A program made the position numbers and the translations under genes. The notes beneath the pieces were generated by a model. It was not told the DNA's origin and made no database searches. It saw only the letters and a list, made by a program, of their open reading frames with translations. Source: Candidatus Campbellbacteria bacterium (GTDB taxonomy: Bacteria; Patescibacteriota; Minisyncoccia; Phycocordibacterales; EsbW-18). Taken from it: a DNA stretch of 64,000 bases. Positions 1,212 through 60,110 of the stretch are shown here, in pieces. Within the stretch, counting starts at the first letter, position 1, and every line of letters begins with the position of its first letter. The DNA lies in the NCBI GenBank assembly GCA_016699465.1, contig CP064977.1, positions 478,503-542,502 of the forward strand. The letters run 5' to 3'.

Positions 1212-1817
1212 CTACTTGCGATATCGAAGGACCCACTCGTCGTCGAGGTTGAGCTCTTTGCTCGGGCTGTACCAGGAGTCGACGTGCCCGAGCCCGTCCC
1301 CGACGAGCTCGACGATGTGCACGAACGAAGCGCCCATCGAGATAATAATGCTCTTCGTCGCGACTCGAATCGACTCGCCCTTGGGCTGATCGTCGTAGGC
1401 CAGACGAAGTGCCGAACCGACTTCGGTCGGACAAGGCTCTAATCCGAGCTTCAGGATACGCACGATGAACATGTCGAAGCGTGGCGACTTGGTAAAGCCG
1501 ACACTCCGCGGAGTAACCCTTACGAGGTGGATGTCCTCCGCTCCATCATAGACACTCCGATCAGCAACACCGAGTGCATCGAGGTATCCCTTCACACCTA
1601 AGTGGTCGCCGATCCGGATGGTCTTCCAGACGGTAAAAACCTTCACCGCCTTCACCCCACACAGTTCACCGCGGTTGAACTTCTTGAGCTCCTCTATGAC
1701 GCGCACTCCTTCGGAGCCCGCAAGTTTCTCCGCGAGAGTCATGAGCGTGCCGAGGTACTCCTTCGGGACTCTCATGATCCATTCGATGAGACGGCCGAGC
1801 ATGTCATGATACGACAC
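1212..1817 (-). CDS. Hypothetical protein, GC-rich, compositionally atypical
   Basis: A 201 aa ORF with a GTG start preceded by AAAAGGAG at 6 nt spacing. Local GC is clearly above that of its neighbours. Confidence 0.5.
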   Translation of the reverse strand: MSYHDMLGRLIEWIMRVPKEYLGTLMTLAEKLAGSEGVRVIEELKKFNRGELCGVKAVKVFTVWKTIRIGDHLGVKGYLDALGVADRSVYDGAEDIHLVRVTPRSVGFTKSPRFDMFIVRILKLGLEPCPTEVGSALRLAYDDQPKGESIRVATKSIIISMGASFVHIVELVGDGLGHVDSWYSPSKELNLDDEWVLRYRK

Positions 1818-1882
1818 GGTCTGCTCCTTTTCTCTATCCCGAGAGCGGAACGCCGTCGGGTACTTCTGCAGAAAATCTACAT

Positions 1883-3664
1883 TTATTCTTTGTGGATGTC
1901 AACAATCCTCAATCGGATGCCGTTCGTGTATCCAAATGTTTCTTTTTCCATAGAAGCAAGAAGTGTAATGGACTGCCCTGCCGACACACGTTCCAAGGTT
2001 TCGTTTCCCTTTGCAAAAAACTTCACAGCAGAAATCATTTTTCCTCCCGAGGTCTTAAAGAGTAATTTGAGATGTTGTTTTTCTTTTCCAAACATTTCAA
2101 TCCTATCAACAAGTATGTTTTCAAATGCAAACACAGGCTTTGGATTACCTGCCCCAAATGGCGCAAGGTGAGAAATACTTTCGTATACTTCTCGTGTCAC
2201 ATCATCGAGAGAAAGCACTGCATCAACGGTCATTTTTTCCTCAGATACTTCCTTAGACGCCAATTTTGTATGTGCATCTGAAAGTGCGGCCTCCAGAAGC
2301 ATAAGATTTTCAACTGTAATAGAAAACCCGCCCGAGTATTTGTGTCCTCCAAATTCAAGAAACAAGTGTCGCACCTCACTCATTAATTCCATCGCACCAA
2401 CACGACCATCAGATCGTACTGAACCTTTAATCACTGACGCATCGCCTCGCCCCCACACAAAGGCACTTTTTCCATACGCTTCCACTACGTGTGTTGCAGC
2501 AAGCCCAAGCAATCCCGGACGCCAGTGTGTATTCCCCACGACAATAACCGGAAGTTCATGCGGTGTTTCTTCAAACTTTTGTTTTATCTCTTTACTCATC
2601 TGCGCCACCGCGCCCTTTCGTTCGTTGTTAATAGAATCCAAGTGGCGCACGAGATTTTCTGCCTCAGTGAGGTTCGTTGTTGAGAGAAGTTGAAAGGCCG
2701 CCTCAGGTTCGTCCATACGCGATGCAGCGTTAATACGCGGGGTAATCATAAATACAACGTCATCCTCAGTCAGTGAATACTGTTTCATTCGGAGGTGCGA
2801 CAACAGTGTGCGAATACCAAGGCGTGGTGATTTTTTTAGCACTAAAAGTCCGTAGTGCGCAAAGACACGATTTTCTCCTGTCAGTGACACCATGTCAGAG
2901 AGCGTTGCAATACCCACCATGTCGAGTAACCATTTCTCCCAACCAATAGGAATGTCTTTTTTTGCCTTCAATAAGAGCGCTTGCGCAATTTTGAAAGCAA
3001 CACCTGCTCCACAAAGGTTTTTGTTTGGATACTCGTCTCCCTCTTGGTTTGGATTTACAATCGCATACGCTTTTGGCACGTCGTGATTTTGCATGTGGTG
3101 ATCGGTAATGATGACATCAATACCCGCATCCATCGCCCGAGCAACGTGCACCACATCTCCCATTCCACAATCAAGTGTGATAACGAGCCCAACCTTCTTG
3201 TCAATGAATGTTGAAATAGCATCTTCATTGAGTCCAAACCCTTCTGTGTTGCGGTGTGGGATGGTGACAGAGAAATTTTCATATCCTATTTTCTTCAAGA
3301 GGTCATGCATCACCACAGCAGACGGAATACCGTCGGCATCAAAATCAGAAAAGAGAGCGATATGTTCGTTACGCTCTACAGCCGACAGAATACGCTCAAT
3401 CGCTTTTTTCATGTCTCGCAACAAAAATGGATCATGCCCATCGTGGTCATATCGCGGTGAAAGAAAAGCATGGGCACCCTCTTTTGTCCTAATACCACGG
3501 TGAAATAGGAGTTTTTGAATAAGCTCGGAATACTCAGCAAGTTGCCCCCGTGTCTCCTTGTCTGGATTTTCAGCAACTATATACTTCTGTACCTGTTGGT
3601 TATTCATGGAATTGTTAGTATACCACCCCACCACTCTAGACTTTGTACCGATATATCGGTACAA
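1883..3664 (-). CDS. recJ: Single-stranded-DNA-specific exonuclease RecJ
   Basis: The DHH/DHHA1 pattern DFDADGIPSAVVMHDLL...ITDHHM is present. The likely real start is the internal Met (MNNQQVQK) near 3607, because the first 19 codons are translated from the upstream palindrome. Confidence 0.9.
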   Translation of the reverse strand: MYRYIGTKSRVVGWYTNNSMNNQQVQKYIVAENPDKETRGQLAEYSELIQKLLFHRGIRTKEGAHAFLSPRYDHDGHDPFLLRDMKKAIERILSAVERNEHIALFSDFDADGIPSAVVMHDLLKKIGYENFSVTIPHRNTEGFGLNEDAISTFIDKKVGLVITLDCGMGDVVHVARAMDAGIDVIITDHHMQNHDVPKAYAIVNPNQEGDEYPNKNLCGAGVAFKIAQALLLKAKKDIPIGWEKWLLDMVGIATLSDMVSLTGENRVFAHYGLLVLKKSPRLGIRTLLSHLRMKQYSLTEDDVVFMITPRINAASRMDEPEAAFQLLSTTNLTEAENLVRHLDSINNERKGAVAQMSKEIKQKFEETPHELPVIVVGNTHWRPGLLGLAATHVVEAYGKSAFVWGRGDASVIKGSVRSDGRVGAMELMSEVRHLFLEFGGHKYSGGFSITVENLMLLEAALSDAHTKLASKEVSEEKMTVDAVLSLDDVTREVYESISHLAPFGAGNPKPVFAFENILVDRIEMFGKEKQHLKLLFKTSGGKMISAVKFFAKGNETLERVSAGQSITLLASMEKETFGYTNGIRLRIVDIHKE

Positions 3665-3666
3665 AG
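3639..3666. promoter_or_regulatory. 28 bp perfect palindrome ACTTTGTACCGATATATCGGTACAAAGT, a candidate operator
   Basis: A perfect inverted repeat sits between the TrpR-like gene stop and the recJ start. Its 20 bp core TGTACCGATATATCGGTACA is repeated exactly at 4081-4100 and 49141-49160. Confidence 0.55.
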
Positions 3667-4074
3667 TTATTTTTCAGTTAACCGGTATATTCTATGCCAT
3701 CGACCCCGACCTTGCGGTGGAAGACCTGCACGTAACATATATTCAATATCTTTCCAAAAATGCAAATTTCTCTTTTCAAGAAAGCAAACAAGTTGAGCGA
3801 TTCTTTTAAATTCCGTTGCTGCAGAAAACCGTTGGGCCGTTGAAATACTCAGACCAAGAATCTCACTCACCCTTCTCACCGGAACACCTTTTGATAACAA
3901 GTGAATTGCGGCAAGACGTTTTGCAAGCATAATTCGTTCGGTTTTTGTAAGCAGTCCGTGCACTAATAAAAGCGCATCCTTTGTTTCATTGGCACGAGAT
4001 ACGTTATGCACCAAATCACGAAAAATCGTTTGAAGAACTTTCTCGGAAATCTTTTTTCTTGAAACGTGCGGCAT
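3667..4074 (-). CDS. TrpR/YerC-family helix-turn-helix regulator
   Basis: The C-terminal part of the 218 aa track ORF starts at MPHVSRKK. It contains LLTKTERIMLAKRLAAIHLLSKGVPVRRVSEILGLSISTAQRFS, which fits the Trp-repressor/YerC HTH pattern. The upstream part of the ORF is low-complexity read-through. Confidence 0.6.
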   Translation of the reverse strand: MPHVSRKKISEKVLQTIFRDLVHNVSRANETKDALLLVHGLLTKTERIMLAKRLAAIHLLSKGVPVRRVSEILGLSISTAQRFSAATEFKRIAQLVCFLEKRNLHFWKDIEYMLRAGLPPQGRGRWHRIYRLTEK

Positions 4075-4080
4075 ACATAA

Positions 4081-4100
4081 TGTACCGATATATCGGTACA
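4081..4100. promoter_or_regulatory. 20 bp perfect palindrome TGTACCGATATATCGGTACA, a candidate autoregulatory operator
   Basis: It begins 7 bp upstream of the ATG of the TrpR/YerC-like gene, in the region divergent from the HIT gene. Confidence 0.55.
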
Positions 4101-4185
4101 GACTAATATAAAGTAGTAAACTAAAGGAAATATAAAGAACGTGGTCTTGTATTGAACCATATAAAAAGACTATACTAATCGGTAT

Positions 4186-4590
4186 ATGACAGACTGTATT
4201 TTTTGCAAAATCGTTTCGGGAGAGATTCCTGCAGAAAAAGTGTATGAGGACGAACACACTCTCGCCTTTTTGGACCTTCACCCGAGCAATCCAGGTCACA
4301 CACTTGTTGTACCAAAAGAACATTCACGCAACGTGTTGGATAGTCACCCAGATACCCTTACACACATGATTCATACTGCACAAAAAATTGCCGTGGTCTT
4401 AAAAAATATTGGAGCTGAAGGAGTCAATATCATTTCAAATAATGAAACCGCTGCAGGCCAGGTAATCTTTCACACACACCTGCATATCATTCCCCGCTAC
4501 ACAGATGACGGACTCGCACTATGGCATGGAAAACCATATCCTGAAGGTGAAATAGAAAAGATGGGAGAAAAAATACGGAATGCTCTCTAG
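4186..4590 (+). CDS. HIT-family (histidine triad) nucleotide hydrolase
   Basis: CIFCKI...FHTHLHIIP carries the HxHxHxx histidine triad. Confidence 0.85.
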   Translation: MTDCIFCKIVSGEIPAEKVYEDEHTLAFLDLHPSNPGHTLVVPKEHSRNVLDSHPDTLTHMIHTAQKIAVVLKNIGAEGVNIISNNETAAGQVIFHTHLHIIPRYTDDGLALWHGKPYPEGEIEKMGEKIRNAL

Positions 4591-4603
4591 GTAGGTACAA
4601 ACA

Positions 4604-4642
4604 AGCCCCGTTCCGCACGAATGCGGAACGGGGCTTTGTATT
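4604..4642. terminator. Bidirectional intrinsic terminator
   Basis: AGCCCCGTTCCGCA-cgaa-TGCGGAACGGGGCT is a 14 bp perfect stem followed by TTTGTATT. It lies between convergent genes. Confidence 0.6.
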
Positions 4643-4683
4643 CAACAGGTCTGGAATCTCGAAGGCAGGTCACCCAGAACCAC

Positions 4684-4968
4684 CTAAGGTTCCTTGGACA
4701 ACTCCCTGTTCGGCGAACCCCCATCGGAAAAAATGGGAGACCTCTCCGGAACCTCGACGCCGCAAATGGTATCGAGAACACTCTCGCCTGTCACCGGCTG
4801 CTCAACCTTCCGAAGCAGTCCCGGCGCATCGGCAAGAAGGACGCCGAGCTCCTCGCGACTCAGGCGGACAGTTCCACCATTGTCGTCCGCGATCACGAAG
4901 AAGCCTTCGTCATACGCGAGTGTCGGACAACAATCCGACGAATGACACAGGGTAATCGCGAATTTCAT
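4684..4968 (-). CDS. Hypothetical small protein, GC-rich, with a strong RBS
   Basis: A 94 aa ORF starting MKFAITL, preceded by AGAAAGGGGGTGGA before the ATG. GC is high and the gene is not conserved-looking. Confidence 0.45.
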   Translation of the reverse strand: MKFAITLCHSSDCCPTLAYDEGFFVIADDNGGTVRLSREELGVLLADAPGLLRKVEQPVTGESVLDTICGVEVPERSPIFSDGGSPNRELSKEP

Positions 4969-5177
4969 TCCACCCCCTTTCTGCACACCGCACTGGTGTG
5001 CGCTGTTGTATACGACTCTTCTGTTGCGGAGAATACCTGAAAAATAAAATCCTGTCAAAGCGAAAGGCCCCGAAGGGCCTTGAAACGGACATCTTCACGG
5101 GGCATAGCATGCTCCTTTCGTCGTACTCCACACCTGCCCTTCTTCCATAAAAGATACTACGCTCTCCTTTTTGTAAG

Positions 5178-6302
5178 TCAATCTTTGAGTGCGTCAATTC
5201 CGGGAAGTGTTCCTTGTGCCAAGAATTCCAACATGGCCCCACCCGCAGATGATGTAAATGTAAACGTTCCCGAAATATGCCCCTCAGCAAGTACTGCATC
5301 TGTGTCGCCACCACCAACAATACTTTCGGCGCGCGATGACGCAATAGCACGAGCACACTCTTGTGTTCCAACAGAAAATCCTTTTTCATACAATCCAAGT
5401 GGGCCATTCCACAATACAAATGCAGCACTAGAAACCACCTGTGCGAGGTGTGCGAGTGTTTCTGGGCCAGCATCCACAATGGTGTCATCTGGGCCAAGTG
5501 CTTCCGGCGTAAGCACGTGCTCTTTCCCATCTACACCAAGTGTGAGGACATCTGTGTACGTCGACACGTGCGGCATTGCCACAATAGTTCGAAGTACTTC
5601 CTCATTCACGGACGCAACTCGAGATGTTCCCACAGAAAATCCTTTTGTTTTAAGTAGCGAGTTTCCCGACACACCAAACACAAAAACACTATCCATATGT
5701 GGAGCAAGAGCGGTAATAATCGGAAGTTTTGTTTCAGGTTTTGCACCTCCCACAATAAGAACAGCTGGGTGCTGTGGATGAAATGCTTCAGAGAGGTGCT
5801 CATACTCTTCTGCAAAACGTATACCCATATAGCTTGGAATGTAGTGTGGAACGCCAACGATTGATGCGTGCACGCGATGCGCAGAGGTAAAATCATCATT
5901 TACAAATATATCAGCAAGCCCAGCAAGTTTTTGTGCAAACGCTTCATCATTTTTTTCTTCTTCTGGAAATTGACGAATATTTTCAAGACACACAATATCT
6001 CCATCCTGCATATGCTCCAGCTTCTCTTTTCCCACCTCATCAAATGGCGATTCCAGAAACGAGACCGGCACGTGTTGTGCAAGAATATCTGCGACTGGTT
6101 TTAATGATTCACCTTCTACAGACACGTGTCCTACGAGAATTGTTTTAGCACCCTTTCCTTTTAAAAAACGGAGTGTTGGAAGATTTCCTAAAGCTCGCGA
6201 CGTGTCAGCAACACTTCCCCGCTCCATGGGAACATTTAAATTTGCACGAACCAACACACGCGTGCCCGGTAAAATTGTTGCTTCGGTAATAGATTTCAAC
6301 AT
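5178..6302 (-). CDS. pgk: Phosphoglycerate kinase
   Basis: Full-length PGK signature, including the RANLNVP N-terminal region and the GGGDT..A..EG C-terminal motifs. Confidence 0.95.
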   Translation of the reverse strand: MLKSITEATILPGTRVLVRANLNVPMERGSVADTSRALGNLPTLRFLKGKGAKTILVGHVSVEGESLKPVADILAQHVPVSFLESPFDEVGKEKLEHMQDGDIVCLENIRQFPEEEKNDEAFAQKLAGLADIFVNDDFTSAHRVHASIVGVPHYIPSYMGIRFAEEYEHLSEAFHPQHPAVLIVGGAKPETKLPIITALAPHMDSVFVFGVSGNSLLKTKGFSVGTSRVASVNEEVLRTIVAMPHVSTYTDVLTLGVDGKEHVLTPEALGPDDTIVDAGPETLAHLAQVVSSAAFVLWNGPLGLYEKGFSVGTQECARAIASSRAESIVGGGDTDAVLAEGHISGTFTFTSSAGGAMLEFLAQGTLPGIDALKD

Positions 6303-6311
6303 ATGAATACT

Positions 6312-7073
6312 CTACAGTTCTAACGCGGCAAGCATATCCGCAACATTACGTGCAACAAGACTTGCTCGCCCAACAAGAACACCTTGTACCGTTCCCTCAT
6401 GAACAATACGTGCAATATTATGTGGCTCAACTGAACCGCCATACAAAATGGGAACCGTCATCCCAGTCGCACGACCATACATGCGTGAAAGTATTTTTCG
6501 TATAAACAGTGTTGATTCATGCACATCACTTGGATTCATGGCATACAATGAAGCCTTACCAATTGCCCATACTGGCTCGTACGCAATAATCACTTTTGCT
6601 ATTTTTGCCTTTGAAATACCTTTCAAGGATTCTCGGAGTTGCTCTTCAATAACGGCAAGATGCTCTCCATGTTCTCCGCGCTCATGTTCTCCAACGCACA
6701 CAATAGGCGTCAGTCCCGCAGCAAGTACTTCACGCGTCTTATGAGCAACCTGTGTGGGTGTCTCACCACCCGCGCGTCGTTCTGAATGCCCTACAATGAC
6801 GTATCGCACACCAACACTCTTCAGCATTGCCGTTGAAACTTCTCCTGTGTGTGCCCCATCAGAAAAAACAGAAACATCTTGTGCTCCAAGAAAAACAAAA
6901 CCGTCACTTTTATTCGAGCAACTCACACAAAACGGTGTTGGTGGACAGACAACAACACTTGTCTTTTTTATTTTTCGAGCATATTTTTTTGTTGCACTCC
7001 ATAGTGCAACTGCCTCACGCGCTGACGAAGGATTCATCTTCCAATTTGCTACAAAAAGTAATTTCATAGGCAC
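6312..7073 (-). CDS. tpiA: Triosephosphate isomerase
   Basis: FVANWKMN, the catalytic region VIVGHSERR and the AYEPVWAIG motifs are present. Confidence 0.95.
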   Translation of the reverse strand: MPMKLLFVANWKMNPSSAREAVALWSATKKYARKIKKTSVVVCPPTPFCVSCSNKSDGFVFLGAQDVSVFSDGAHTGEVSTAMLKSVGVRYVIVGHSERRAGGETPTQVAHKTREVLAAGLTPIVCVGEHERGEHGEHLAVIEEQLRESLKGISKAKIAKVIIAYEPVWAIGKASLYAMNPSDVHESTLFIRKILSRMYGRATGMTVPILYGGSVEPHNIARIVHEGTVQGVLVGRASLVARNVADMLAALEL

Positions 7074-7097
7074 TTATTGTACCACGAAGCCCACATC

Positions 7098-8498
7098 CTA
7101 CTCGATTTCCTCCCACGAAATAGTCACATATTGGTCGGCCGTCAATGGGAACGATGGTGGTGGTGCATAGAGAAGGTTTGCATCATAAATATAATTACGA
7201 GTCGCATACCCGTCAGGGTCATACCAAAAGCCCGAACGTTGGTTTGTTCCCAACATACCATACGTGGTAAGAAGTGTACGCGCGTGGTTTGGAGAACACC
7301 CTGTAGAATAACTATATCTACCAATTCTCCCGTTTTGAGCAATAATCGCAGCATCTATACGCAAATCATCTTCACTTACCAAACCAACATTGAAGTCTCC
7401 TTGTGCAATCAAACCAATGACATCAGATCCATCATAGCGAGTATACCGAATATCATTGGTAACATTAATATTTTTTCTTGTTGACGGATTATCTGGAAAA
7501 CGAGCAGCGCCAATAGTTAAACGCGCGCCATCAATTGTTCCATTTATCCACACATGATCTTCAACAAAAATGAGACCATTCGTTGGAAATGCATAATTGG
7601 CGACAAAGGTTTCTCCACCACTCTTAATACTCAATGTTCCACACCCTGTCCCCGTACACGAACAACCATTCTTTGAGTACATGGTATTTACCTTATACAA
7701 ATCAAACGTGTCATTTGTCTTGAGAACAATGTGATATCCCAACACCCCCGATGCTGCAAAATATCGTCCCGCTGATTGCGCTGCACTTTTTATTAGAGAC
7801 AAATCAGAAACAATTCCCGTAAAATCAACTGCAGGTACCGGAAACTGTCGTCCCGCCTTAAATACATCTGAACGATTTGGAACCGCCGACGGAGGAAGTG
7901 GGTCTACAGGCGTACTGTGGGTATGTACCCCAAACTCTTTTGCTCCCGTATGATCAGGGTCATCAAACGTCGACGTCGCACTCGTTACTAAGTTGTACGC
8001 GACACCGTCAAAACGAAGTCCTGTGTTTGAATGAATCGGGCCGTACACATTTGCCGTTGATCCAAAGTTTACAAAGCTATTCAGCACCCACGCGTACTTT
8101 GCAAATGATGGAATTGCAAAAAGAACTTCAACAGTTCGAGAAATTGTTGGTTCTGCAAGTGTAGACCCTGTCGAGCGCACCCGCACAATCGTCGAACCAA
8201 CTGTCGGCGGTGTAATGGTAAGTGAAAAATGCCCAATAACATCACCTTCTTTGTTACGAAATTCGTGTATGTACGGTCCTGATGTTGCCGTTCCGTCTCG
8301 ATAATCAGTAGGCGCATGTGCTAAATGCCAACGATAATAATCAATACCAGCTTCCGCAATATGAAAAGAAAGTTCTCGAGACGTTGCCGTTCGCAATACA
8401 CGCGCATTTGTTCCAGCCCACGAAACAAGTCCTGTGAGCATTACAATACCAAGAGACGCAAGAACCAAAACAGTCACCAGCATTTCTCCTTTTGACAT
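7098..8498 (-). CDS. Secreted or membrane-anchored protein in the pilus cluster, possibly a pilus-associated adhesin or minor pilin
   Basis: A large protein with an N-terminal TM/signal segment (MSKGEMLVTVLVLASLGIV). It sits in an operon with the prepilin genes. There is no clear GFxxxE prepilin motif, so the role is inferred from context. Confidence 0.45.
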   Translation of the reverse strand: MSKGEMLVTVLVLASLGIVMLTGLVSWAGTNARVLRTATSRELSFHIAEAGIDYYRWHLAHAPTDYRDGTATSGPYIHEFRNKEGDVIGHFSLTITPPTVGSTIVRVRSTGSTLAEPTISRTVEVLFAIPSFAKYAWVLNSFVNFGSTANVYGPIHSNTGLRFDGVAYNLVTSATSTFDDPDHTGAKEFGVHTHSTPVDPLPPSAVPNRSDVFKAGRQFPVPAVDFTGIVSDLSLIKSAAQSAGRYFAASGVLGYHIVLKTNDTFDLYKVNTMYSKNGCSCTGTGCGTLSIKSGGETFVANYAFPTNGLIFVEDHVWINGTIDGARLTIGAARFPDNPSTRKNINVTNDIRYTRYDGSDVIGLIAQGDFNVGLVSEDDLRIDAAIIAQNGRIGRYSYSTGCSPNHARTLLTTYGMLGTNQRSGFWYDPDGYATRNYIYDANLLYAPPPSFPLTADQYVTISWEEIE

Positions 8499-8547
8499 GT
8501 GGTGTAGAGCGCGACCTTTGTGCTGTGTAGAAAAAAAGTGCATCGTA

Positions 8548-9189
8548 TTATAAGTTATCTTTAATGGTCCGAACAGAAACCTGTGTGGTACCAACAAGTG
8601 GTGGCAACGCATCGTTGATATCATCATCCACCACAACAGTTATCTTTACAAGACGAATACTTGAAGCAGATACTGGTTGTGTAAGTGGTGTTGTTGTTCC
8701 CGCATAGTTTGTATCATAGTACGAAAAGATCGGTGTGCTTGTCGCTCGTACATTTTTGACCATAGTCCGCACCGTTTCACTACCCGTATATCCAAGCGGG
8801 GTCCCCGACGGCTTGAGTATTCCCTTCTTTAAATCTGTTCCCTGAAGAAAGTATCGTATTTGCTCTTTGAGCCCGTCGTTATCTCTATCAACATAAAACG
8901 ACAATGTAGAATCAGTCGTTGTAGCAAGCACGTATGATCCAACACTACTTGCTGACGCAGAACGAAGCTCCGCACTCACGCGTCTCAGTATCACCTGCAA
9001 CTCTTGCTGAATTTGTAACCGACCCTGTGCCGTTCGTGACGAAGAAAAAATATCAATAAACAGCGTCCACACTGAAATACCAATCACCACGCTAATAGCA
9101 ATAACCACGAGTATCTCAGGAAGACTGAATCCGGTACTAAACGATCGTCTTTTTCTGTAATATTTTTTTATAATGAAAGAAAGTACCAT
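8548..9189 (-). CDS. Prepilin-type N-terminal cleavage/methylation domain protein (type IV pilin or pseudopilin)
   Basis: The FSTGFSLPEILVVIAISVVIG class III signal is present. Confidence 0.75.
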   Translation of the reverse strand: MVLSFIIKKYYRKRRSFSTGFSLPEILVVIAISVVIGISVWTLFIDIFSSSRTAQGRLQIQQELQVILRRVSAELRSASASSVGSYVLATTTDSTLSFYVDRDNDGLKEQIRYFLQGTDLKKGILKPSGTPLGYTGSETVRTMVKNVRATSTPIFSYYDTNYAGTTTPLTQPVSASSIRLVKITVVVDDDINDALPPLVGTTQVSVRTIKDNL

Positions 9190-9248
9190 AGAAACATATT
9201 GCTTAATGCTGGATAACTTCTTTTGCAGTACGTGTGCTCATAGTCATA

Positions 9249-11096
9249 TCATTCTGGAGTAAGTGTTGCTTCATACGATACAAAATCACTAGTTACTGAA
9301 AGTGGTGCACTCGTGTACGGCTGATATCCCGATTTTGAAACAGATACGGTGTACACGCCGTCTGAAAGACCAGAAAATGTCACCTGACCAGGAGGAACGC
9401 ACTCTGAAGTAAACGTGAACGAGATATCAGAAATAGTCGGCGTAACCGAAACATCATCGGTTGCCAAAAAAACTTTATACCTAAAATACCTGTTCATGTT
9501 GTGTATTGGATTAATATTCTGATCCGCAAGCGTGTAGTACGTACCTGTTGTTCCGTCGGGACCCAAAAAATTCCACGTTGTCGTCGCCGCATCATTACTA
9601 GTGGCAACTTGTAACCGAACAGCATTTTGCCCTGCAAGAGGCGGCTGATCTTCGGACTGCCATGCAATTCGATAAAAATTACTTGGTGAAGCAACGTCAA
9701 AAATTGATGATGTTAAGTTTCCTGACGGTGTATATGTTCCCGCAAAACGTACGAGCGTTAACACGCCCGCGGGCGCACTTGTTTCTATACCAGCGTCATG
9801 TGAACTATAATTTGAACCCCCGGACCACAACTCTTCACCAGAACCACCCGACCAATCCGTCTGTCGCAAAAATCCACGACCAGTTGTCTGTGTTTCTCCT
9901 CCAGAAATTTCAACATCAGCTTCAGAAATTGGTAATCCCGTACCGCTATCTTTTACTGTCACCAACAACGCATTGGGGTCAGCTGGACCAACAACAACAC
10001 GAACGTCAAGATTTGAATTTGGGGCAATAATAGGAGGAAGAAGCGGGATAAGTCCGAGAAGTTGGTGAGTCCCATCATTAACCGAGAGTGTGTACGTGTC
10101 CCACTCAAGATCATTAATAACTTTTTCCCCAACATAATTTGTTGTGTGTGTCTGGTAGTATTTGTTCACGTCTGGACTTGTTCCTATTAATTTACTTCCC
10201 CGCACACCAACACTCACACTTGGAACAACCGTGCATGTTTGCGTAACACTTTGTATACTCAGCGAACTCAAAAGATCGATTGAAAAACTAATCTGCGTTA
10301 CCTGCTGTTGTGCAACTGTTGCAAAAGGTTTTGTTGGGTTTGGATTACCTGTTGTTCCTTCGTACGTTTGGTCCGAAGAGTACCCTTCTTTGCTCACAAA
10401 CACCTGGTATGCACCCGCACCAGGAGGAATATCCACAAGTTGGAGCACCCCATTGGCGTCCGTCACATCATCAATACGAATGTGTGGAGTTACTTGATTA
10501 TTTTCAACGCGCACATCAGCAGCTTGTACGGGTACCCCGTTGGCATCAAATACTCGAATAAAGAGCGCCCCGTTTGTTGACGCCATCTCAAGATTTTTTG
10601 GACTCACACGAGTCGTAAATATTGCTGAAGAAAAATTTCTACATGCCGCACACGTGATCTTTGCTTCAACGAGCTTATAGTCTGCAGGAGAAATATCATT
10701 GGGAGTTCCGCCGAGCACTCCATCAAACGGATCGTCAATGTTTCGAACTGTTGTCGTCACGGTAAACGTAATACCGTCACGCACAAGTGTTTGTATGTGT
10801 GGAACCAATCCTGAGGGAATACTGTTCACCACACCGACTTTTGCATATGGCATATTTCGAATAATTTCAAACTGCTCAGTTGCAAGTGACGACGCAACGA
10901 GGTTGACCCGCGATGAATCAATAACATTAAACAGTGTTATGTATGCTTGGTATAACCCAACTGCAATAATCAAAAAAAGTGCCGACGCAATGAGCGTTTC
11001 AACAAGTGTAAATCCTTTTTTTGTGTACCCCACAACACGTAACACGCAATATGTATTCGTACCTTTTTTTATTTTGTTACATGCTTCAAGTTTCAT
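9249..11096 (-). CDS. Large prepilin-type protein (pseudopilin or pilus tip protein)
   Basis: KKGFTLVETLIASALFLIIAVGL is a prepilin N-terminus, followed by a long beta-rich extracellular region. Confidence 0.7.
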   Translation of the reverse strand: MKLEACNKIKKGTNTYCVLRVVGYTKKGFTLVETLIASALFLIIAVGLYQAYITLFNVIDSSRVNLVASSLATEQFEIIRNMPYAKVGVVNSIPSGLVPHIQTLVRDGITFTVTTTVRNIDDPFDGVLGGTPNDISPADYKLVEAKITCAACRNFSSAIFTTRVSPKNLEMASTNGALFIRVFDANGVPVQAADVRVENNQVTPHIRIDDVTDANGVLQLVDIPPGAGAYQVFVSKEGYSSDQTYEGTTGNPNPTKPFATVAQQQVTQISFSIDLLSSLSIQSVTQTCTVVPSVSVGVRGSKLIGTSPDVNKYYQTHTTNYVGEKVINDLEWDTYTLSVNDGTHQLLGLIPLLPPIIAPNSNLDVRVVVGPADPNALLVTVKDSGTGLPISEADVEISGGETQTTGRGFLRQTDWSGGSGEELWSGGSNYSSHDAGIETSAPAGVLTLVRFAGTYTPSGNLTSSIFDVASPSNFYRIAWQSEDQPPLAGQNAVRLQVATSNDAATTTWNFLGPDGTTGTYYTLADQNINPIHNMNRYFRYKVFLATDDVSVTPTISDISFTFTSECVPPGQVTFSGLSDGVYTVSVSKSGYQPYTSAPLSVTSDFVSYEATLTPE

Positions 11097-11106
11097 GTAC
11101 TATTCT

Positions 11107-12315: not shown

Positions 12316-12381
12316 GTTTCTATTATCGCACACGTTTGCATAAAAAAATTCCACATGAAGTGGATTTGTGTGCATTTTAGA

Positions 12382-49603: not shown

Positions 49604-49632
49604 GTAAAATAGAAAACAACAAAGGGGGTCCT

Positions 49633-49863
49633 ATGGACCATAGAATTACCGCCGACGATGGACAGGGTGGCGTCACTCACGTCATCATGTCGCGAGAACT
49701 GCTTTCCAAGATGGTTGGAAACGCCATTCTTGAATCTGTTCTTGCGTCAATGCAGATCGAGGGTGAAGAATTTCCCCCAGGAGTTCACGTCGAACTCCAA
49801 GAACCCGTCATCCTGCCGGAAGCGCTACTGAACACCGACAAGTCAGCTCCGCGGAAGCGTTAG
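49633..49863 (+). CDS. Hypothetical protein, GC-rich micro-gene
   Basis: 76 aa. ACAAAGGGGGTCCT precedes the ATG. A hairpin terminator with a T tract lies at about 49880-49915. Confidence 0.5.
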   Translation: MDHRITADDGQGGVTHVIMSRELLSKMVGNAILESVLASMQIEGEEFPPGVHVELQEPVILPEALLNTDKSAPRKR

Positions 49864-50005
49864 CAACACCGCGGTTCACGTATTATCCACCCCGTCACTC
49901 GAAAGTGTGATGGGGTGTTATCTTTTTACCCAAACAGTAAAAAACGTTTGTCTGAAAACGCATTTTGTTGTACAGTGTCTCTGTTTCCACTAGTAATAGA
50001 TATAT

Positions 50006-50816: not shown

Positions 50817-50887
50817 AAATAATAGGTGTTGGAAGTTAGGAGTGAGAAGTTGGTGATTGGTTTGGAACGTTGGTTATTTTTTGAGCT

Positions 50888-53293
50888 TTATACTTTGAGC
50901 TTTGTGCTTACTCTCTTCATCTCACTCCAACGTTTTCCTGACGATGCTTCTGTGAGAACAGGAACGCCTCCTGCCTTCTCTGGTGAAAGTGCCGTCTCCA
51001 TAATCTCTTTCATCACAGGAACAATTGTTGAGACACTGTCTTCACGTACTTCAAAAATAAGTTCATCATGAATTTGCAACACTAACCGCACATCTGGTGA
51101 GAGATTATTTTTTGTAATGTACTCGTCTGCGCGAATCATCGCAACTTTAATAATATCTGCGGACGTTCCCTGAATTGGTGCGTTCACCGCCTGACGCTCT
51201 GCTTCGGCCTGCATAAATGGCAACGGTGAACGAATGGCGGAGAGTTGCCGTCGGCGCCCAAAAAGTGTTTCTGTATAACCTTTTTTACGCACCTCGCCCT
51301 TTGCTCGAGAAATGTATTCCCGCAACCCAACAAATGTTTTTTCATATTCCGCGAGATATTTTTGTGCGTCACTGCGCGACATCTTTGCTGTGGCGGCGAG
51401 TGCGTTTGCACCCATGCCATAAATAATACCGAAGTTAATCACCTTTGCTGTCCGTCGCATATCCACGGTGACATCTTCTGGGGCAACACCAAAAATTTCT
51501 GCCGCAACCGTTGTGTGAATGTCTCCACCTTCGTGAAACGTCTTCACCAATTTTTCATCGCGCGACATGATTGCGGCAATGCGCAATTCAATCTGCGAGT
51601 AATCAAATGCCACGAGTGCATATCCTTTTTCAGCGACAAATGCTCCACGCACTGCGCGACCGAGTTCTGTTCGTATTGGAATATTTTGTAAATTTGGATT
51701 TTGCGAAGAGAGTCGTCCTGTTGTTGTTCCCATCTGCATGAACGTTGTATGTAAGCGCCCATCTTCACCAATTAGAGACGGGAACGCATCAATGTATGTT
51801 GAAAGTAGTTTTTGCAATTCTCGATACTCTAAAATTTCGTTGATAATCGGATGTGCATCAACAAGCTTCTGTAACTCCGACTCTCGCGTAGAGCGTTGTC
51901 CTGTTGATGTTTTTTTGCCACCCTTCAATCCCATTTTTTCAAACAAGACATCCCCGAGTTGTCGAGGTGAGTTTATGTTAAATTCACCCCCCGCATGCTG
52001 GTAAATTCTACGAGCAAGCGCGTCCAATTCACTGTGATAATCTCGCGACAACTCCTTGAGATACTCAACGTCGAGACGAATACCCACATCGGTCATTTTT
52101 GTGAGTACGGGCGTCAGCGGTTTTTCAATTGTTTCCAAAAGGGGTGTGAGTCCCTCCTTGTGAAGATCTGCGACAATTTTTGTGTGTGCAACCTTAAGTG
52201 ATTCTGTTTTTGCATACGCGAGAATATCTTCTTCAGAGGGCGATGTCATATCTGAATTGAGCAACCACAACCCGAGGCGTGCTTCTTCAAGATCGCGTGC
52301 TGAAATTATTTCTTTTACTGGCTCTGGTGCATCTTCAAAAAGTTTTTCACTACGACCAAAATGCTCCTTGAGACGCGCTGTGAGCGACCGAAACCCGAGT
52401 TCGGTAAAAAGTGTCGTAACCACAGATGTGTCCACACTCTCGCTCCATGTTTTTTCTGGCAACACAAACGAAATCGGCACATCACGACGAATCGTTGCAA
52501 GCATTTTTGAAAATTCAGCATCTTCTTTCCCTTCTTGTAGGAGTTTTACTGTGCGTGCAGTAACTCCAGATGCAATAACTTTTTGCTCATCTTTTTTGAG
52601 TGCGGTGTATATATCCTTAAGCGAACCGAATGTGGTGACAAGTGTTGTTGCTGTTTTTTCACCAATACCTGCAATGCCTGGAATATTATCGGATGGATCC
52701 CCGCGAAGACCTTTGTAATCTGGGAGCAATTTTGGACCAAATCCAAAACGAGCCTGCACATCTTTTTCTCCGTATAAAATAGTGTCATGCATTCCTTTGC
52801 GAAGCGTAAACACACGAACCCGATTTCCATCCACGAGCTGAAGCGTATCCATATCACCCGAGGTGATAACAATTTCAATATCATCCCGTTTTTTCATTTG
52901 CTCAACAATCGTGCCCAACACATCGTCCGCCTCAAATCCTTCACACTCATACAGTGGTATTGAAAGTGCCTTGAGCACATCACGGCTACGTTCAATTTGT
53001 CGTACCAAATCATCTTCAATTTTTGCGCGCGTTCCTTTGTATCCAACAAACGCTTCGTGCCGATACGTTGGTTTTGGTAAATCGTACGCAGCAACAATGT
53101 AATCCGGCTTGAGTTCTGCCACCATTTTTAACAACATTGCCGAGAGACCATAGAGCGCACCTGTTGGCTCTCCTGTAGGAGATGCAAAATCAGGAAGTGC
53201 GTGATATGCACGGTGAATAATGGCATGCGTATCAAGAAGCACAAGACGTTTTGTTTCTTTTTTTACAGTTTTTTTTGTTGGAACTTTTGCCAT
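50888..53293 (-). CDS. polA: DNA polymerase I
   Basis: N-terminal 5'-3' exonuclease (LLDTHAIIHRAYHA) and C-terminal family A polymerase motifs (DYSQIELR, QIHDELIFE). 801 aa. Confidence 0.9.
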   Translation of the reverse strand: MAKVPTKKTVKKETKRLVLLDTHAIIHRAYHALPDFASPTGEPTGALYGLSAMLLKMVAELKPDYIVAAYDLPKPTYRHEAFVGYKGTRAKIEDDLVRQIERSRDVLKALSIPLYECEGFEADDVLGTIVEQMKKRDDIEIVITSGDMDTLQLVDGNRVRVFTLRKGMHDTILYGEKDVQARFGFGPKLLPDYKGLRGDPSDNIPGIAGIGEKTATTLVTTFGSLKDIYTALKKDEQKVIASGVTARTVKLLQEGKEDAEFSKMLATIRRDVPISFVLPEKTWSESVDTSVVTTLFTELGFRSLTARLKEHFGRSEKLFEDAPEPVKEIISARDLEEARLGLWLLNSDMTSPSEEDILAYAKTESLKVAHTKIVADLHKEGLTPLLETIEKPLTPVLTKMTDVGIRLDVEYLKELSRDYHSELDALARRIYQHAGGEFNINSPRQLGDVLFEKMGLKGGKKTSTGQRSTRESELQKLVDAHPIINEILEYRELQKLLSTYIDAFPSLIGEDGRLHTTFMQMGTTTGRLSSQNPNLQNIPIRTELGRAVRGAFVAEKGYALVAFDYSQIELRIAAIMSRDEKLVKTFHEGGDIHTTVAAEIFGVAPEDVTVDMRRTAKVINFGIIYGMGANALAATAKMSRSDAQKYLAEYEKTFVGLREYISRAKGEVRKKGYTETLFGRRRQLSAIRSPLPFMQAEAERQAVNAPIQGTSADIIKVAMIRADEYITKNNLSPDVRLVLQIHDELIFEVREDSVSTIVPVMKEIMETALSPEKAGGVPVLTEASSGKRWSEMKRVSTKLKV

Positions 53294-53773: not shown

Positions 53774-54118
53774 GTGTCGTTTATTGATGAAATGGTGGCA
53801 TGTGGTATGCTCACACGTAGACAAGAACTAATCTGGAGGAACCTACTTGTGGAACGGATACCCGGCGACAAAGACCCCATCCACGTCGCGTTTGGACTAC
53901 GCACCCTTGGGTGGAACCGCGAGATTCTCATCTGCATGTCCCAGAAAGAGCCTGTGTTCGAGAAACTCATGCTCCTCAAAGAGGTTGCCGTAGCCGGTCG
54001 ATGGAAGTCCGCTATCGCCAAGATGCGCAGTGCAGCACTTCGAGGCAAGCGGCCTCCGTCGCACACACACGTTGCCCTCGAGATTTTTTCGAGGATTTCT
54101 CACAAGGTCGCCCCGTAG
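53774..54118 (+). CDS. Hypothetical protein, GC-rich
   Basis: About 100-114 aa. No RBS. The GGTCGCC-ccgta-GGCGACC terminator with a T tract lies at 54106-54137. Confidence 0.35.
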   Translation: MSFIDEMVACGMLTRRQELIWRNLLVERIPGDKDPIHVAFGLRTLGWNREILICMSQKEPVFEKLMLLKEVAVAGRWKSAIAKMRSAALRGKRPPSHTHVALEIFSRISHKVAP

Positions 54119-54203
54119 GCGACCTTCTTCTTTTTTCTTCACTTTATTTGCTACACCCAGCACGTAGCTTTCAAAAAAGCTAAGTGCTGGGTACACTATA
54201 GGT

Positions 54204-57400: not shown

Positions 57401-57633
57401 CAGTGTGGGCGAGGTTAAATCTCGCCGCTACAGTTATCCACCGTAGAGATTGACCTAAAGAAACATCGCCTTTATCATAACCAATGGAAGTTCTTTGGGG
57501 AATGCCATCCTTAATTCCTAGGGGGATATGAAGCGTGCGCGAACGCAAGTTTGCGGTCATTGACCTGTTCGATGACACACAGGAAACACGCGGAAGCTGT
57601 CCCATGCGCCCGACGGACCAAAGGATTTCCACC

Positions 57634-57660
57634 AGCCGGACCACGTCCGGCTTTTTCTTA
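57634..57660 (+). terminator. Intrinsic terminator
   Basis: AGCCGGAC-cac-GTCCGGCT followed by TTTTCTTATC. Confidence 0.6.
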
Positions 57661-57674
57661 TCTAGCGATAACTA

Positions 57675-57703
57675 TTGACATACTCAAAAAAGTTAAGTAT
57701 TAT
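57675..57703 (+). promoter_or_regulatory. Consensus sigma70 promoter TTGACA-17-TATTAT
   Basis: A perfect -35 and a 5 of 6 -10 with 17 nt spacing, about 95 nt upstream of the 57800 ORF. Confidence 0.5.
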
Positions 57704-57799
57704 CCTACCAGAAGCTCTTCAGTGGACGCAATCTGTTTCTGTCATCACCCCTCGCGTCGTTCTAGTCAAAATGCAGGTCTACCGAGCAAGGAGCCCGCC

Positions 57800-58030
57800 A
57801 TGACCGCACCACCCAGCGCATCTGCTTCCGTCAACCACGCAGTCAACTGCACACTCACCGTGCTCCGTGGCAACATGAACCCAATCGCCACTTCGAACGT
57901 TGTCATCACACTCACGATGTACATGCGCGACCGAACAATGACGCCGTCTGAACAGCAAGAAGCATGGGGTCTCCTCCTCGCCCGCGTCCAGGAGGAAGGA
58001 CGGGAATACGAGAAGCAGCTCCATCCGTAA
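57800..58030 (+). CDS. Hypothetical protein, GC-rich micro-gene
   Basis: 76 aa. GAGCAAGGAGCCCGCC precedes the ATG. The CCCCGCC...GGCGGGG terminator with T7 lies at 58053-58088. Confidence 0.5.
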   Translation: MTAPPSASASVNHAVNCTLTVLRGNMNPIATSNVVITLTMYMRDRTMTPSEQQEAWGLLLARVQEEGREYEKQLHP

Positions 58031-58137: not shown

Positions 58138-58662
58138 ATGTCCGGCCACAATAAATGGAGTCAAATAAAAGAAAAAAAAGGAGCTACTGACGCAAAGCGC
58201 GGTAAGTTGTTTACCAAATTAGTAAAATTAATTAAGACTGAGGCCCGCATCACAAAGGGTGACCTCAATGCGCCAACGCTTAAAGCGGCAATAGAAAAAG
58301 CACGTACGGCGAATATGCCAAAAGATAACATCGACCGCGCAATACAAAGTGCGCAAAATACAGCCGCTGATGAAAAAGTTGTGTACGAAGCATTTGGTCC
58401 AGGTGGATGTGCGCTCATTATTGAAGGACTTACCGATAGTAAAAACCGGACTTCCCAGGAAATGAAACATCTTCTTTCAGAACACGATCTTGCACTCGCA
58501 GCCCCAGGTTCTGCAAGTTGGGCATTTACAAAAACACATGAGGGTTGGACACCAACAACCACCGTTCCCCTTTCAGAAGAAGATGGCGCAAAACTTTCTG
58601 CACTTATTGAAGAACTTGAAAACAACGACGATGTGCAGGAGGTGTATACAAATGCAGAATGA
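58138..58662 (+). CDS. yebC: YebC/PmpR-family transcriptional regulatory protein
   Basis: MSGHNKWSQIKEKKGATDAKRGKLFTKL N-terminus with full-length conservation. Confidence 0.9.
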   Translation: MSGHNKWSQIKEKKGATDAKRGKLFTKLVKLIKTEARITKGDLNAPTLKAAIEKARTANMPKDNIDRAIQSAQNTAADEKVVYEAFGPGGCALIIEGLTDSKNRTSQEMKHLLSEHDLALAAPGSASWAFTKTHEGWTPTTTVPLSEEDGAKLSALIEELENNDDVQEVYTNAE

Positions 58663-58761
58663 TGCAAAAACTCAAAATCCAAAATTTAAAGCTCAAAAAA
58701 TTATGAAATTATTACACTTTGAAACATTTTTTGGATTTTGTGCTTTGAACTTTGTGCTTTT

Positions 58762-59232: not shown

Positions 59233-59270
59233 TATGTGGTAGCTAGTATGTGGTATGTGGTGTGTGGGTT
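59222..59270. repeat. Left flank: GTAGTATGTGG-unit low-complexity repeat, the inverted partner of 59683-59760
   Basis: (GTATGTGGT)n-like units, with the reverse complement present downstream of the four-helix-bundle gene. Confidence 0.6.
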
Positions 59271-59307
59271 TAGAAAAATTTTATGTACATGATGTATAGC
59301 GTTTGTT

Positions 59308-59682
59308 ATGAACACCATAAAAGATTTTACCGATCTCCGTGTCTGGCAATCGGCACACCAACTTGCCATTTTGTTATATAAAACAAGAGCACCTTTTCCA
59401 AAAGAAGAGGTGTTTGGTTTGGCCGGTCAACTACGACGAGCAGGAGTTTCTGTTTCATCAAATATTACTGAAGGTTTCGGGAGAAATTTTTCAAAAGAAA
59501 AGGTCCTGTTTTACCACATTGCACAATCTTCATTACGTGAAGTTTATTCACAAGTGTTGCTCGCAAAAGATATTGGATATGTACCCGAGCAAAATACCCA
59601 GCTCATTTTTGAACAAATTGTTTCAATAGGAAAAATGCTAACGGCACTCATCAAAACCGTTTCTTCCCGTCCGATTTCATAA
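59308..59682 (+). CDS. Four-helix-bundle protein (23S rRNA intervening-sequence protein family, TIGR02436-like)
   Basis: FDLRVWQSAHQLAILLYKTRAPFPKEEVFGLAGQLRRAGVSVSSNITEG signature. Flanked by imperfect inverted repeats of about 45-75 bp. Confidence 0.8.
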   Translation: MNTIKDFTDLRVWQSAHQLAILLYKTRAPFPKEEVFGLAGQLRRAGVSVSSNITEGFGRNFSKEKVLFYHIAQSSLREVYSQVLLAKDIGYVPEQNTQLIFEQIVSIGKMLTALIKTVSSRPIS

Positions 59683-59760
59683 CCCACATGCCACCCCCAC
59701 ATACCAACTACCACATACCACCCCTTGCATACCAACTACTACATACTTCCCCATATCGTT
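59683..59760. repeat. Right flank: CCACATACC-unit repeat, the inverted partner of 59222-59270
   Basis: Reverse complement of the GTATGTGG units. Related units occur at 240-300. Confidence 0.6.
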
Positions 59761-59882
59761 GTCCCCATATTATCCACGGTGGCCACATTGACCACTTGAA
59801 CTCTTGCGCATGATTTGATACAACAGTACTCACTTCTGCACTCACACTATTTTTGCAGGAGATTATCACATAACAGCAACCT

Positions 59883-60110
59883 ATGTTTGATGCAGACACA
59901 ACCTTGTCACCAACCATTACGGATGATGACGACCTGCTCTCTCCGTGGGACGACACCGACGATACCGCTCTTCCTGTAGAACCAGACGAAGAGGGGGGCG
60001 ACCTTGTCCCACCAAAACCACTCGATCCACTCAGTGAAGAGGACGAGGATGATGAGGAGGCCGATGAATTTGGCCTTTCTTCAGATGATTTTGGGGACGA
60101 AGAACTATAG
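59883..60110 (+). CDS. Possible highly acidic small protein (Asp/Glu about 40%)
   Basis: 75 aa. No RBS. GC-rich. It shares the bidirectional terminator AAAAACCACCC-ctca-GGGTGGTTTTT (60122-60150) with tyrS. The antisense strand has a Ser-rich ORF, so the coding strand is uncertain. Confidence 0.3.
   Translation: MFDADTTLSPTITDDDDLLSPWDDTDDTALPVEPDEEGGDLVPPKPLDPLSEEDEDDEEADEFGLSSDDFGDEEL

Follow-up and report, generated by a model that had tools for sequence, protein, structure and literature searches.

Small GC-rich genes and core genes of the window

The window analysed here is a stretch of 64,000 nucleotides from the closed 811,376-bp genome of a Candidatus Campbellbacteria bacterium (GCA_016699465.1, contig CP064977.1, positions 478,503 to 542,502), with an overall GC content of 0.443. 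It carries a class of 13 small GC-rich genes preceded by strong Shine-Dalgarno (SD) sequences, annotated as hypothetical proteins in the public record (QQR82193-QQR82222; IPJ70_028xx-029xx). The housekeeping content of the window comprises recJ, pgk, tpiA, type IV pilus genes, a P-type ATPase, rplS, rpsT, ruvABC, a murein ligase, polA and PBP1, besides seven tRNAs. The small genes are flanked by recJ, pgk, tpiA, rplS, rpsT, ruvA, polA, pil genes and tRNAs and are not embedded in a prophage; several adjoin tRNA-Leu or tRNA-Lys. The PolA of the window is at most 65% identical to that of any species representative, with the best matches among Parcubacteria/Paceibacteria-type metagenome-assembled genomes.

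An earlier note on this DNA, made from the sequence alone, had described the small genes as GC-rich, self-contained transcription units, some beside tRNA-Leu and tRNA-Lys, with signals and composition unlike those of the core genes. Coordinates and features are borne out. GC contents range from 0.52 to 0.58 and GC at third codon positions (GC3) from 0.56 to 0.75, compared with about 0.44 and 0.30-0.42 in core genes. Mean values of the small genes for the three codon positions (GC1/GC2/GC3) are 0.60/0.42/0.65, and the periodicity GC3>GC1>GC2 supports real coding. Third codon positions and the stems of terminators hold the GC excess, whereas the stretch of 80 nt upstream of the small genes is at the genome average (0.44). 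C- and G-ending codons are both preferred (AAG 0.70 vs 0.28; ATC 0.60 vs 0.17).

All 13 small genes possess AAGGAG(G), AGGAGG, AAGGGGG or AAGGGAG, 4-10 nt 5' of the start codon. In a curated list of 78 genes, SD matches of at least 5 nt coincide with a GC3 of at least 0.52 (counts 11/4/3/60, Fisher p = 5e-8), in a test that is not fully independent since the list was partly chosen by SD. Seven of the 13 best sigma70-like sites in 60 kb (10/12 or better) lie within 220 nt upstream of small genes (binomial p = 2e-8). The promoters quoted earlier, at 57675, 49575, 43485 and 48162, are all present. Of the terminators in the same 60 kb, the 13 strongest include eight that stand directly behind small genes (p = 1e-13). 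Predicted leaders are 22-94 nt long and A/C-rich. The small-gene units are thus predicted to have their own promoter and terminator and a composition unlike that of their neighbours, and by these signals the small genes look leadered and SD-dependent.

Core genes are organised differently. An SD of at least 5 nt precedes one of 30 core genes, with starts taken from an independent gene caller, and a TANNNT hexamer ending 3-10 nt 5' of the start is found in 19 of the 30, compared with 10% at random positions. TG precedes several of these hexamers, e.g. TGGTATACT and GTGGTACAAT. Because a -10 box stands just 5' of ATG and SDs are almost lacking, the core organisation looks leaderless and SD-less, in agreement with the earlier description of core promoters as leaderless in style. 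The further claim that the genome otherwise lacks E. coli-like signals holds in part only: core genes do use -10 promoters, often TG-extended, but these are placed for leaderless mRNAs.

Two further genes, m25293 and m38011, fit the class more weakly (Table 1). The leader of m25293 (25085-25292) runs for about 180 nt from a TTGACA-16-TATTGT site and contains a terminator-like hairpin (25217-25245), which may be an attenuator; no Rfam family matches this leader at gathering thresholds. Three open reading frames (ORFs) had been listed earlier as weaker cases. Two are rejected as class members, 38726-39034 and 59883-60110, having no SD and a GC3 of 0.33 and 0.46. The third, 53849-54118, stays uncertain; it is without comparative support, and the public annotation calls the antisense ORF 53897-54196 in its place. 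The public short-read gene caller places antisense or over-long ORFs in three GC-rich islands (4621-5040(+), 53897-54196(-), 57572-58030(+)), merging m57800 into a 152-aa ORF in the last; some small proteins are therefore missing or wrong in protein databases.

Table 1. Small genes and repeated motifs of the window, with predicted expression signals (SD, Shine-Dalgarno; CDS, coding sequence; DGR, diversity-generating retroelement)
Feature	Position	Strand	Product or content	Predicted signals and remarks
m1212	1212-1817	-	201 aa; N-terminal helical part and predicted C-type-lectin-like domain; Patescibacterial DGR variable-protein family	SD AAGGAG 1824-1829; promoter-like TTGACA-17-TAGATT 1902-1874
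m4684	4684-4968	-	94 aa, ORFan	SD AAGGGGG; promoter-like TTGACA-17-TATTCT 5058-5030; public annotation has antisense ORF 4621-5040 instead
m25293	25293-25841	+	182 aa, P-loop kinase	SD AAGGAG; terminator 25850-25879; weaker member, GC3 0.53
m29918	29918-30106	+	62 aa	SD AAAGGAGG; terminator 30105-30133; GC3 0.75; adjoins tRNA-Leu (30304-30388)
m30479	30479-30718	-	79 aa	SD AAAGGAG; terminator 30460-30429; GC3 0.72
m31472	31472-31924	-	150 aa	SD AAGGAGGT; terminator hairpin 31432-31463; GC3 0.56
m32058	32058-32192	-	44 aa, predicted membrane peptide	SD-like AAGGGAG; promoter-like site 32272-32244; strong hairpin just 3'
m38011	38011-38532	-	173 aa, signal peptide	SD AAGGGGG; promoter-like 38600-38573; terminator 37992-37970; weaker member, GC3 0.46
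m41743	41743-42069	-	108 aa	SD AAGGAGG; terminator 41758-41737; GC3 0.71
m43093	43093-43416	-	107 aa	SD AAGGAGG; promoter TTGACT-16-TACAAT 43485-43458; terminator 43086-43059
m47714	47714-48112	+	132 aa	SD AGGAGG; promoter-like site 47651-47679; terminator 48128-48151
m48228	48228-48506	+	92 aa, coiled-coil-like	promoter TTGACA-17-TATTAA 48162-48190; SD AAAGGAGG; terminator 48513-48535
m48620	48620-48877	+	85 aa	SD AAAGGAG; terminator hairpin ~48904-48926
m49633 cassette	49498-49939	+	CDS 49633-49863, 76 aa	promoter TTGACT-17-TATAAT 49575-49603; SD AAGGGGG; terminator 49888-49917; upstream of tRNA-Lys
m57800 unit	57675-58030	+	CDS 57800-58030, 76 aa	promoter TTGACA-17-TATTAT 57675-57703; ~89-nt leader; SD AAGGAG; GC-rich hairpin after CDS; GC3 0.68
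Uncertain candidate	53849-54118	+	89 aa	GTG start after GGAGG; terminator 54104-54126
AT-rich repeated intergenic motifs	587-669, 33064-33098, 37464-37515, 50870-50904, 58661-58761
AT-rich repeated motifs, also upstream of genes	12522-14270, 39723-40181, 50112-50816, 60149-61402

A contig from short-read run SRR11674038 is 100% identical to window positions 1616-16302, cassette borders included (expected reach ~30361), and two more short-read contigs cover ~30332-37500 and ~50883 onwards according to exact-protein look-ups. Identity of independent short-read contigs across the cassette borders, where aligned, means that the arrangement is not an assembly artefact. The same-strain contigs break inside m1212 (1616) and inside tRNA-Leu (30332-30361). 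The break in tRNA-Leu is probably due to repeated tRNA k-mers, and that at 1616 might reflect population variation in m1212.

Repeated AT-rich motifs, of a TTTTTTGGATTTTGTGCTTTG-like and a CTAACTTCCAAC-like type, also stand in intergenic positions 5' of several core genes of the window. Related short tandem motifs (AGCTAAAAAGCTAA) occur in the relatives L087 and L001. On a distant Patescibacterial contig, L132, a 55-nt unit composed of a terminator hairpin, TGGTAGAAT and ATG is present five times at a spacing of ~1.1 kb (5795-10268), and each gene with this unit seems to be its own leaderless unit. A perfect 18-nt palindrome, GTACCGATATATCGGTAC, occurs three times in the window (3645-3662, 4082-4099 and 49142-49159; none expected in shuffles), one copy lying within a gene for a SpoU-type methylase. 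The palindrome may serve in protein binding or represent a small repeat element.

Strain variation and homologous families

The sister strain B (run SRR11673994, loci L084 and L085) has core genes with 85-98% nucleotide identity to those of the window. Ratios of nonsynonymous to synonymous divergence (dN/dS) between the two strains are 0.08 for m31472 and 0.09 for m47714, which identifies both as real proteins under purifying selection; m43093 is present in strain B with 93% amino-acid identity. Other units differ in presence, a polymorphism that the earlier note had suggested looking for. The m49633 cassette is exactly absent from strain B, the junction being bounded by A6-7 microhomology. 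Also missing is the pair m48228 and m48620; the promoter and leader of m48228 remain up to CAAACCAACC, and the pair was therefore deleted in strain B. The gene m29918 is absent, the slot of m32058 holds a different SD-led gene of 207 aa, and other sequence stands in place of the regions near 38-39 kb and 40.5-42 kb.

Where both strains carry alleles of a small gene in the same slot, these may be strongly diverged: m30479 is 44% identical (dN 0.48) and m41743 49% (dN 0.42), compared with 93-94% identical proteins (dN ~0.04-0.05) for the adjacent rplS and rpsT. For m41743 dN/dS is 0.46, against 0.04-0.05 for the flanking rpsT and ruvA. Identity between window and strain B is mosaic, with tracts of ~100% beside tracts of ~65-85%, a pattern that points to frequent homologous recombination. 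Within 42477-48215, compared with L085, identity is ~100% at 44967-47600 and 50-85% at 42477-42800, 43650-43930 and 46360-46500. Recent sweeps specific to cassettes were considered and rejected: the low synonymous divergence (dS) of m31472 and m43093 belongs to the general mosaic tracts and is not cassette-bounded.

Among the duplicated gene ends reported earlier, one cassette is flanked by such a duplication. The m38011 cassette lies between 98-nt direct repeats (37813-37910 and 38633-38730; 97% identical) that duplicate the 5' end of ruvX and are the footprint of its arrival. The duplication leaves a ruvX stub ORF of 51 aa (38574-38729). No integrase or transposase is seen among the annotated neighbours, and no repeat family, attC-like included, is common to the cassette ends.

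The gene m41743 lies directly after rpsT in four genomes, namely the window, strain B and two relatives whose core proteins are 81-93% (L174) and 59-69% (L087) identical to those of the window. Its orthologues (L085, L174, L087) are 42-49% identical, compared with 59-94% for the core proteins around it. An SD precedes the gene in all four genomes, and the leader sequence is recognisably conserved. GC3 values are 0.71 in the window, ~0.54 in strain B, 0.74 in L174 and 0.61 in L087, with 0.31-0.54 in the flanks, where the core genes have reached saturation at synonymous sites. A recent acquisition, as put forward earlier for the class, finds no support for m41743: conservation and synteny in relatives are what the earlier note had itself named as refuting evidence.

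Several such genes per genome are found elsewhere. L087 carries five GC3-rich, SD-led genes in 12 kb; a distant genome with a GC content of 0.38 (L056) has an SD-led gene of 119 aa with a GC3 of 0.69; the closest species representative (L001) possesses many SD-led small genes with GC 0.54-0.56, compared with 0.46-0.50 in its core. The same pattern is seen again in L087, L174, strain B and L056, with L001 as a weaker case. Three families are GC3-rich in other genomes, two of them with a clear SD. For an SD survey of 80 PolA loci a loose scan proved too permissive and was replaced by a strict scan.

Homologues were collected by an exhaustive phmmer search of 1.84 billion representatives. The search returned a large family for m1212 (non-self matches with E down to 1e-29), a family of ~110 aa for m41743, and small families for m29918 (~48% identity), m30479, m47714 (a single homologue, 50% identical), m48620 (64-67% identity) and the C-terminal half of m31472 (homologues of ~80 aa, one with GC3 0.76 vs ~0.5 in its flanks). 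Every family member with a source name is from Patescibacteria, and the gene contexts of the retrieved homologues are Patescibacterial; on this census the families with homologues appear endemic to Patescibacteria. Structure models (AlphaFold2) are confident for two families, and m41743 is predicted to adopt an alpha/beta fold with a basic C-terminal helix. Except for the kinase, the small proteins have no matches in Pfam, NCBIfam, PHROGs or PADLOC. Paralogy, suggested earlier on the strength of a V-I/V-D-x-x-GG motif, finds no support: an all-against-all BLASTP of the small proteins gives nothing below E = 0.05, and hhalign assigns a probability of 0.8% to a relation of the m41743 and m30479 families.

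Members of the m1212 family combine GC3-rich composition and SD in many genomes. In 33 of 35 metagenomic loci with enough flanking sequence (background GC 0.35-0.57), the family member exceeds the flanking large genes in GC3 (mean +0.24; Wilcoxon p = 6e-10), a signature that speaks against the foreign origin claimed for this gene. A strict SD precedes 21 of the 35, compared with 5% of the flanking genes. The 29 stand-alone copies have a mean GC of 0.567, with 0.427 in their flanks; multi-domain relatives of 350-625 aa show no GC3 offset. The relatives sit in different slots across genomes.

In relatives of m1212, the last ~130 nt of the gene (variable region, VR) are repeated 280-420 nt downstream (template repeat, TR), and a bAvd gene and an RVT_1 reverse transcriptase (RT) follow the TR; mismatches between VR and TR fall almost only at TR adenines (17/17, 27/27 and 21/23). 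Of the 31 loci that extend 1 kb or more downstream, 13 show this arrangement. The adenine mismatches together with bAvd and RVT_1 make the m1212 family a variable-protein family of DGRs, with a predicted C-type lectin (CLec) fold and the variable region at the C-terminus. In complete DGRs the target gene alone is GC-rich and SD-led; RT and Avd, a few hundred bp away, have a host-like GC of 0.30-0.41 and no SD. The family fits the Patescibacteria-restricted clade of cellular DGRs (clade 2) described by Roux et al. 2021 (PMC8144416).

For want of a TR, a DGR within the window itself is rejected. With the last 149 nt of m1212 as query, an adenine-tolerant TR scan that covered the 64 kb on both strands returns only the gene itself, and window positions 1-2000 contain no direct repeats. 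The neighbouring gene 681-1103 encodes RNase H, and RVT_1 is not among the Pfam-matched genes covering ~1.6-16.3, 30.3-37.5 and 50.9-63.3 kb, with 16.3-30.3 kb covered in part. Either the window copy of m1212 is an orphan, or it is served from some other place in the genome. A 23S_rRNA_IVP/Avd-like four-helix-bundle gene (59308-59682; E = 2e-32) lies 58 kb from m1212 with no reverse transcriptase nearby; similar stand-alone copies also occur in L087 and L090.

Scans of viral contigs find no relatives for three of the four families or proteins queried. The fourth, m1212, matches two contigs, one being a distant match (25%) in a high-GC contig. The other (L092, IMGVR_UViG_3300042876_001093) contains two tandem m1212-family genes with one common template repeat (4867-6918). 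It also carries bAvd and a gene for AbiV (HEPN), has a long stretch of (AG)n at ~7281-7310, and looks like a cellular Patescibacterial DGR locus rather than a phage. With PHROGs, a BFVD fold search and the viral-contig scans negative or marginal, a phage origin of the small genes is rejected, as is membership in a defence system (PADLOC negative).

Proposed origin and maintenance of the class

The reading that we favour, with a probability of about 0.55, is that the small genes are native, unrelated accessory units whose composition is maintained in a genome with two modes of translation initiation. They would belong to the flexible genome of a Patescibacterial, Campbellbacteria-like lineage and occupy intergenic slots between AT-rich core genes with leaderless, SD-less mRNAs. 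Each unit would be monocistronic, with a -35/-10 promoter, an A/C-rich leader of 22-94 nt, a strong SD and an intrinsic terminator. We infer that core mRNAs are leaderless, with the start codon at the 5' end, and that the variable class is translated by canonical SD-dependent initiation. Turnover would proceed by recombination, cassettes being gained and deleted and diverged alleles swapped at fixed slots, which leaves genomes mosaic. The small proteins would evolve 4-10 times faster than neighbouring core proteins, as expected for functions in conflict or recognition. From this fast evolution, the allelic hypervariability and the DGR link we infer such functions for the class. GC3-rich usage would be a long-lived family attribute within Patescibacteria and not the remnant of a recent E. 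coli-like import, upheld at synonymous sites either by selection tied to leadered SD expression or by continual swapping of genes in a pool internal to the phylum. That the genes are real, leadered, accessory and endemic we hold with high confidence; active maintenance of the GC3-rich composition is a tentative proposal with slightly less than even chances.

Several observations weigh against this reading. Promoters, transcription starts and SD use are read from sequence only, and the 16S anti-SD lies outside the window. That C- and G-ending codons have both risen is as compatible with a compositional shift as with selection. Members of the m1212 family track the GC of their hosts in part only (slope 0.39, rho 0.54), which is what transfer with partial amelioration would give. 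A function is assigned for one family only, and four proteins (m4684, m43093, m49633 and m57800) have self or sister-strain matches only. Other SD-led small ORFs beside m1212 relatives in diverse loci, away from the Campbellbacteria-like lineage, are few and not significantly GC3-rich (n = 10, p = 0.1). Persistence of the signature is therefore shown phylum-wide for one family only and lineage-wide for the class.

The units may instead be young, moron-like copies in a continuous lateral flux from an unseen mobile reservoir of higher GC within the phylum, such as Patescibacterial phages, plasmids or elements of another kind, their GC being that of the reservoir and not upheld on the spot. Cassette-exact indels and slot replacement accord with such a flux, as do the different slots of m1212 relatives in each genome, the enrichment of both G- and C-ending codons and a GC of the m1212 family that averages 0.57 whatever the host, with the shallow slope given above. 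One IMG/VR 'viral' contig with two tandem m1212-family copies might represent the reservoir, but it has the appearance of a cellular DGR locus with AbiV and Avd. No reservoir was found, with no PHROG matches and no viral relatives for three further queries. Moreover, m41743 keeps its locus and a conserved 5' untranslated region through saturated synonymous divergence, and RT and Avd beside the GC-rich DGR target have host composition. We regard the reservoir as rather unlikely. Less probable again is the origin proposed in the earlier note, namely recent, unameliorated DNA from SD-using, GC-richer host bacteria or their phages that kept donor-type signals. Atypical GC3 and codon usage, consensus sigma70 promoters, strong SDs, tRNA adjacency, strain-specific presence and the four ORFans without detectable relatives would all be explained by it. 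Named relatives, however, are all Patescibacteria, and every family with homologues occurs in Patescibacteria-like contigs; no phage, defence or Pfam matches (PHROG, PADLOC, Pfam, NCBIfam) and no integrase, transposase or common end repeats were seen, and three of the four viral scans were negative. Three families show synteny and keep the signature, and orthologues retain the GC3 excess (m41743 in four genomes, 33 of 35 m1212-family loci). The DGR loci and the syntenic m41743 thus argue against a simple recent import.

GC-biased gene conversion would raise GC through conversion tracts if the variable slots were recombination hot spots. These slots recombine by definition, and the strongly mosaic genomes encode a type IV pilus and competence-like machinery. 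Promoters and leaders in the same cassettes are nevertheless at genome-average GC, and the restriction of the excess to third positions, besides terminator stems, argues against regional conversion; highly recombined core tracts (44967-47600, ~100% identity) are not GC-rich. The difference in GC3 of ~0.25 also exceeds the shifts that have reportedly been attributed to biased gene conversion in bacteria. This process is an improbable source of the excess, marginally more so than recent import. An artefact, whether from chimeric assembly or from ORFs that arise by chance in non-coding islands of high GC, is already effectively refuted. GC-rich DNA does give long ORFs on both strands, and the public caller took antisense frames in three islands, but m31472 and m47714 are under purifying selection, homologous families exist, the SD is correctly spaced at every gene, and the same sequence occurs in an independent short-read assembly and in the sister strain.

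A bolder extension of the favoured reading, which we consider doubtful, is that a Patescibacteria lineage (phylum-wide in the case of DGR targets) keeps a second genomic compartment of variable genes, of conflict or recognition type, with their own GC3 (about +0.25) and their own leadered, SD-led initiation, apart from an AT-rich core that is leaderless and SD-less, the separation being actively maintained and not residual foreignness. Such a compartment could allow a switchable translational regime, e.g. ribosomes with exposed anti-SD, or expression upon host contact only.

If the two-tier organisation holds for RNA and protein, the combination of leader, SD and GC3-rich usage would mark fast-evolving, strain-variable genes of Patescibacteria, mostly 'hypothetical', likely involved in host interaction or conflict and in some cases mis-called by standard gene callers. 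Atypical composition then need not imply recent foreign origin, and the question arises why DGR targets use an SD and separate codons while the adjacent RT and Avd do not. The organisation, which rests on deductions from sequence, would be of interest for candidate phyla radiation (CPR) genomics and for research on translation initiation and DGRs.

Comparison with known systems

Phage morons, according to Hendrix and colleagues, are reportedly autonomous promoter-gene-terminator units of deviant composition between conserved genes of lambdoid phages. The small-gene units resemble them in their predicted sigma70-type promoter and intrinsic terminator, in their position between conserved genes, in their deviant composition and in being present or absent among close relatives. 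They differ in lying on a cellular chromosome, with housekeeping genes as the backbone, in having no PHROG matches, in departing from this backbone also in their predicted mode of translation initiation, and in that at least one of them keeps a stable synteny from species to species.

Like genomic islets and integron cassettes, the small-gene units are small, variable, slot-like insertions, some of which adjoin tRNA genes. Integron cassettes usually lack a promoter of their own; here each unit has its own predicted promoter, and no integrase, attC-like or common end repeats were found. Acquired DNA is usually AT-richer than its host, whereas the small genes are GC-richer.

Genomes with mixed leaderless and leadered transcripts are described for Mycobacterium (PMC3898074, PMC4633059) and Deinococcus (PMC4007540), and leaderless classes are distinguished by GeneMarkS-2 (PMC6028130). 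In these as in the window, a -10 box placed for a start codon at the 5' terminus precedes most first genes, and a minority has a leader and SD. In the window, however, the genes with leader and SD are also those with a distinct codon usage and those of the accessory, fast-evolving part of the genome. Literature searches turned up no account of leaderless or SD organisation for either Parcubacteria or Patescibacteria.

Variable proteins of DGRs (Mtd, TvpA; PMC8144416) are matched by m1212 in its homology to VR/TR proteins beside bAvd and RVT_1 and in its predicted C-type-lectin-like fold. Differences lie in the missing TR within 64 kb and the RNase H neighbour of the window copy, and in the other 12-14 small genes, which are unrelated to m1212. 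A term search of the DGR paper (PMC8144416) returns nothing on an offset in GC content. Already known are leaderless genomes, morons, islets of the flexible genome and DGR targets of CPR bacteria. The m1212 family is a new Pfam-less family of DGR targets, ~200 aa long and with a defined VR. What appears to be new beyond this family, no prior description having been found, is the union of SD-led leaders, persistent GC3-rich usage and accessory or hypervariable status in one class of genes, in a phylum that is mostly SD-less.

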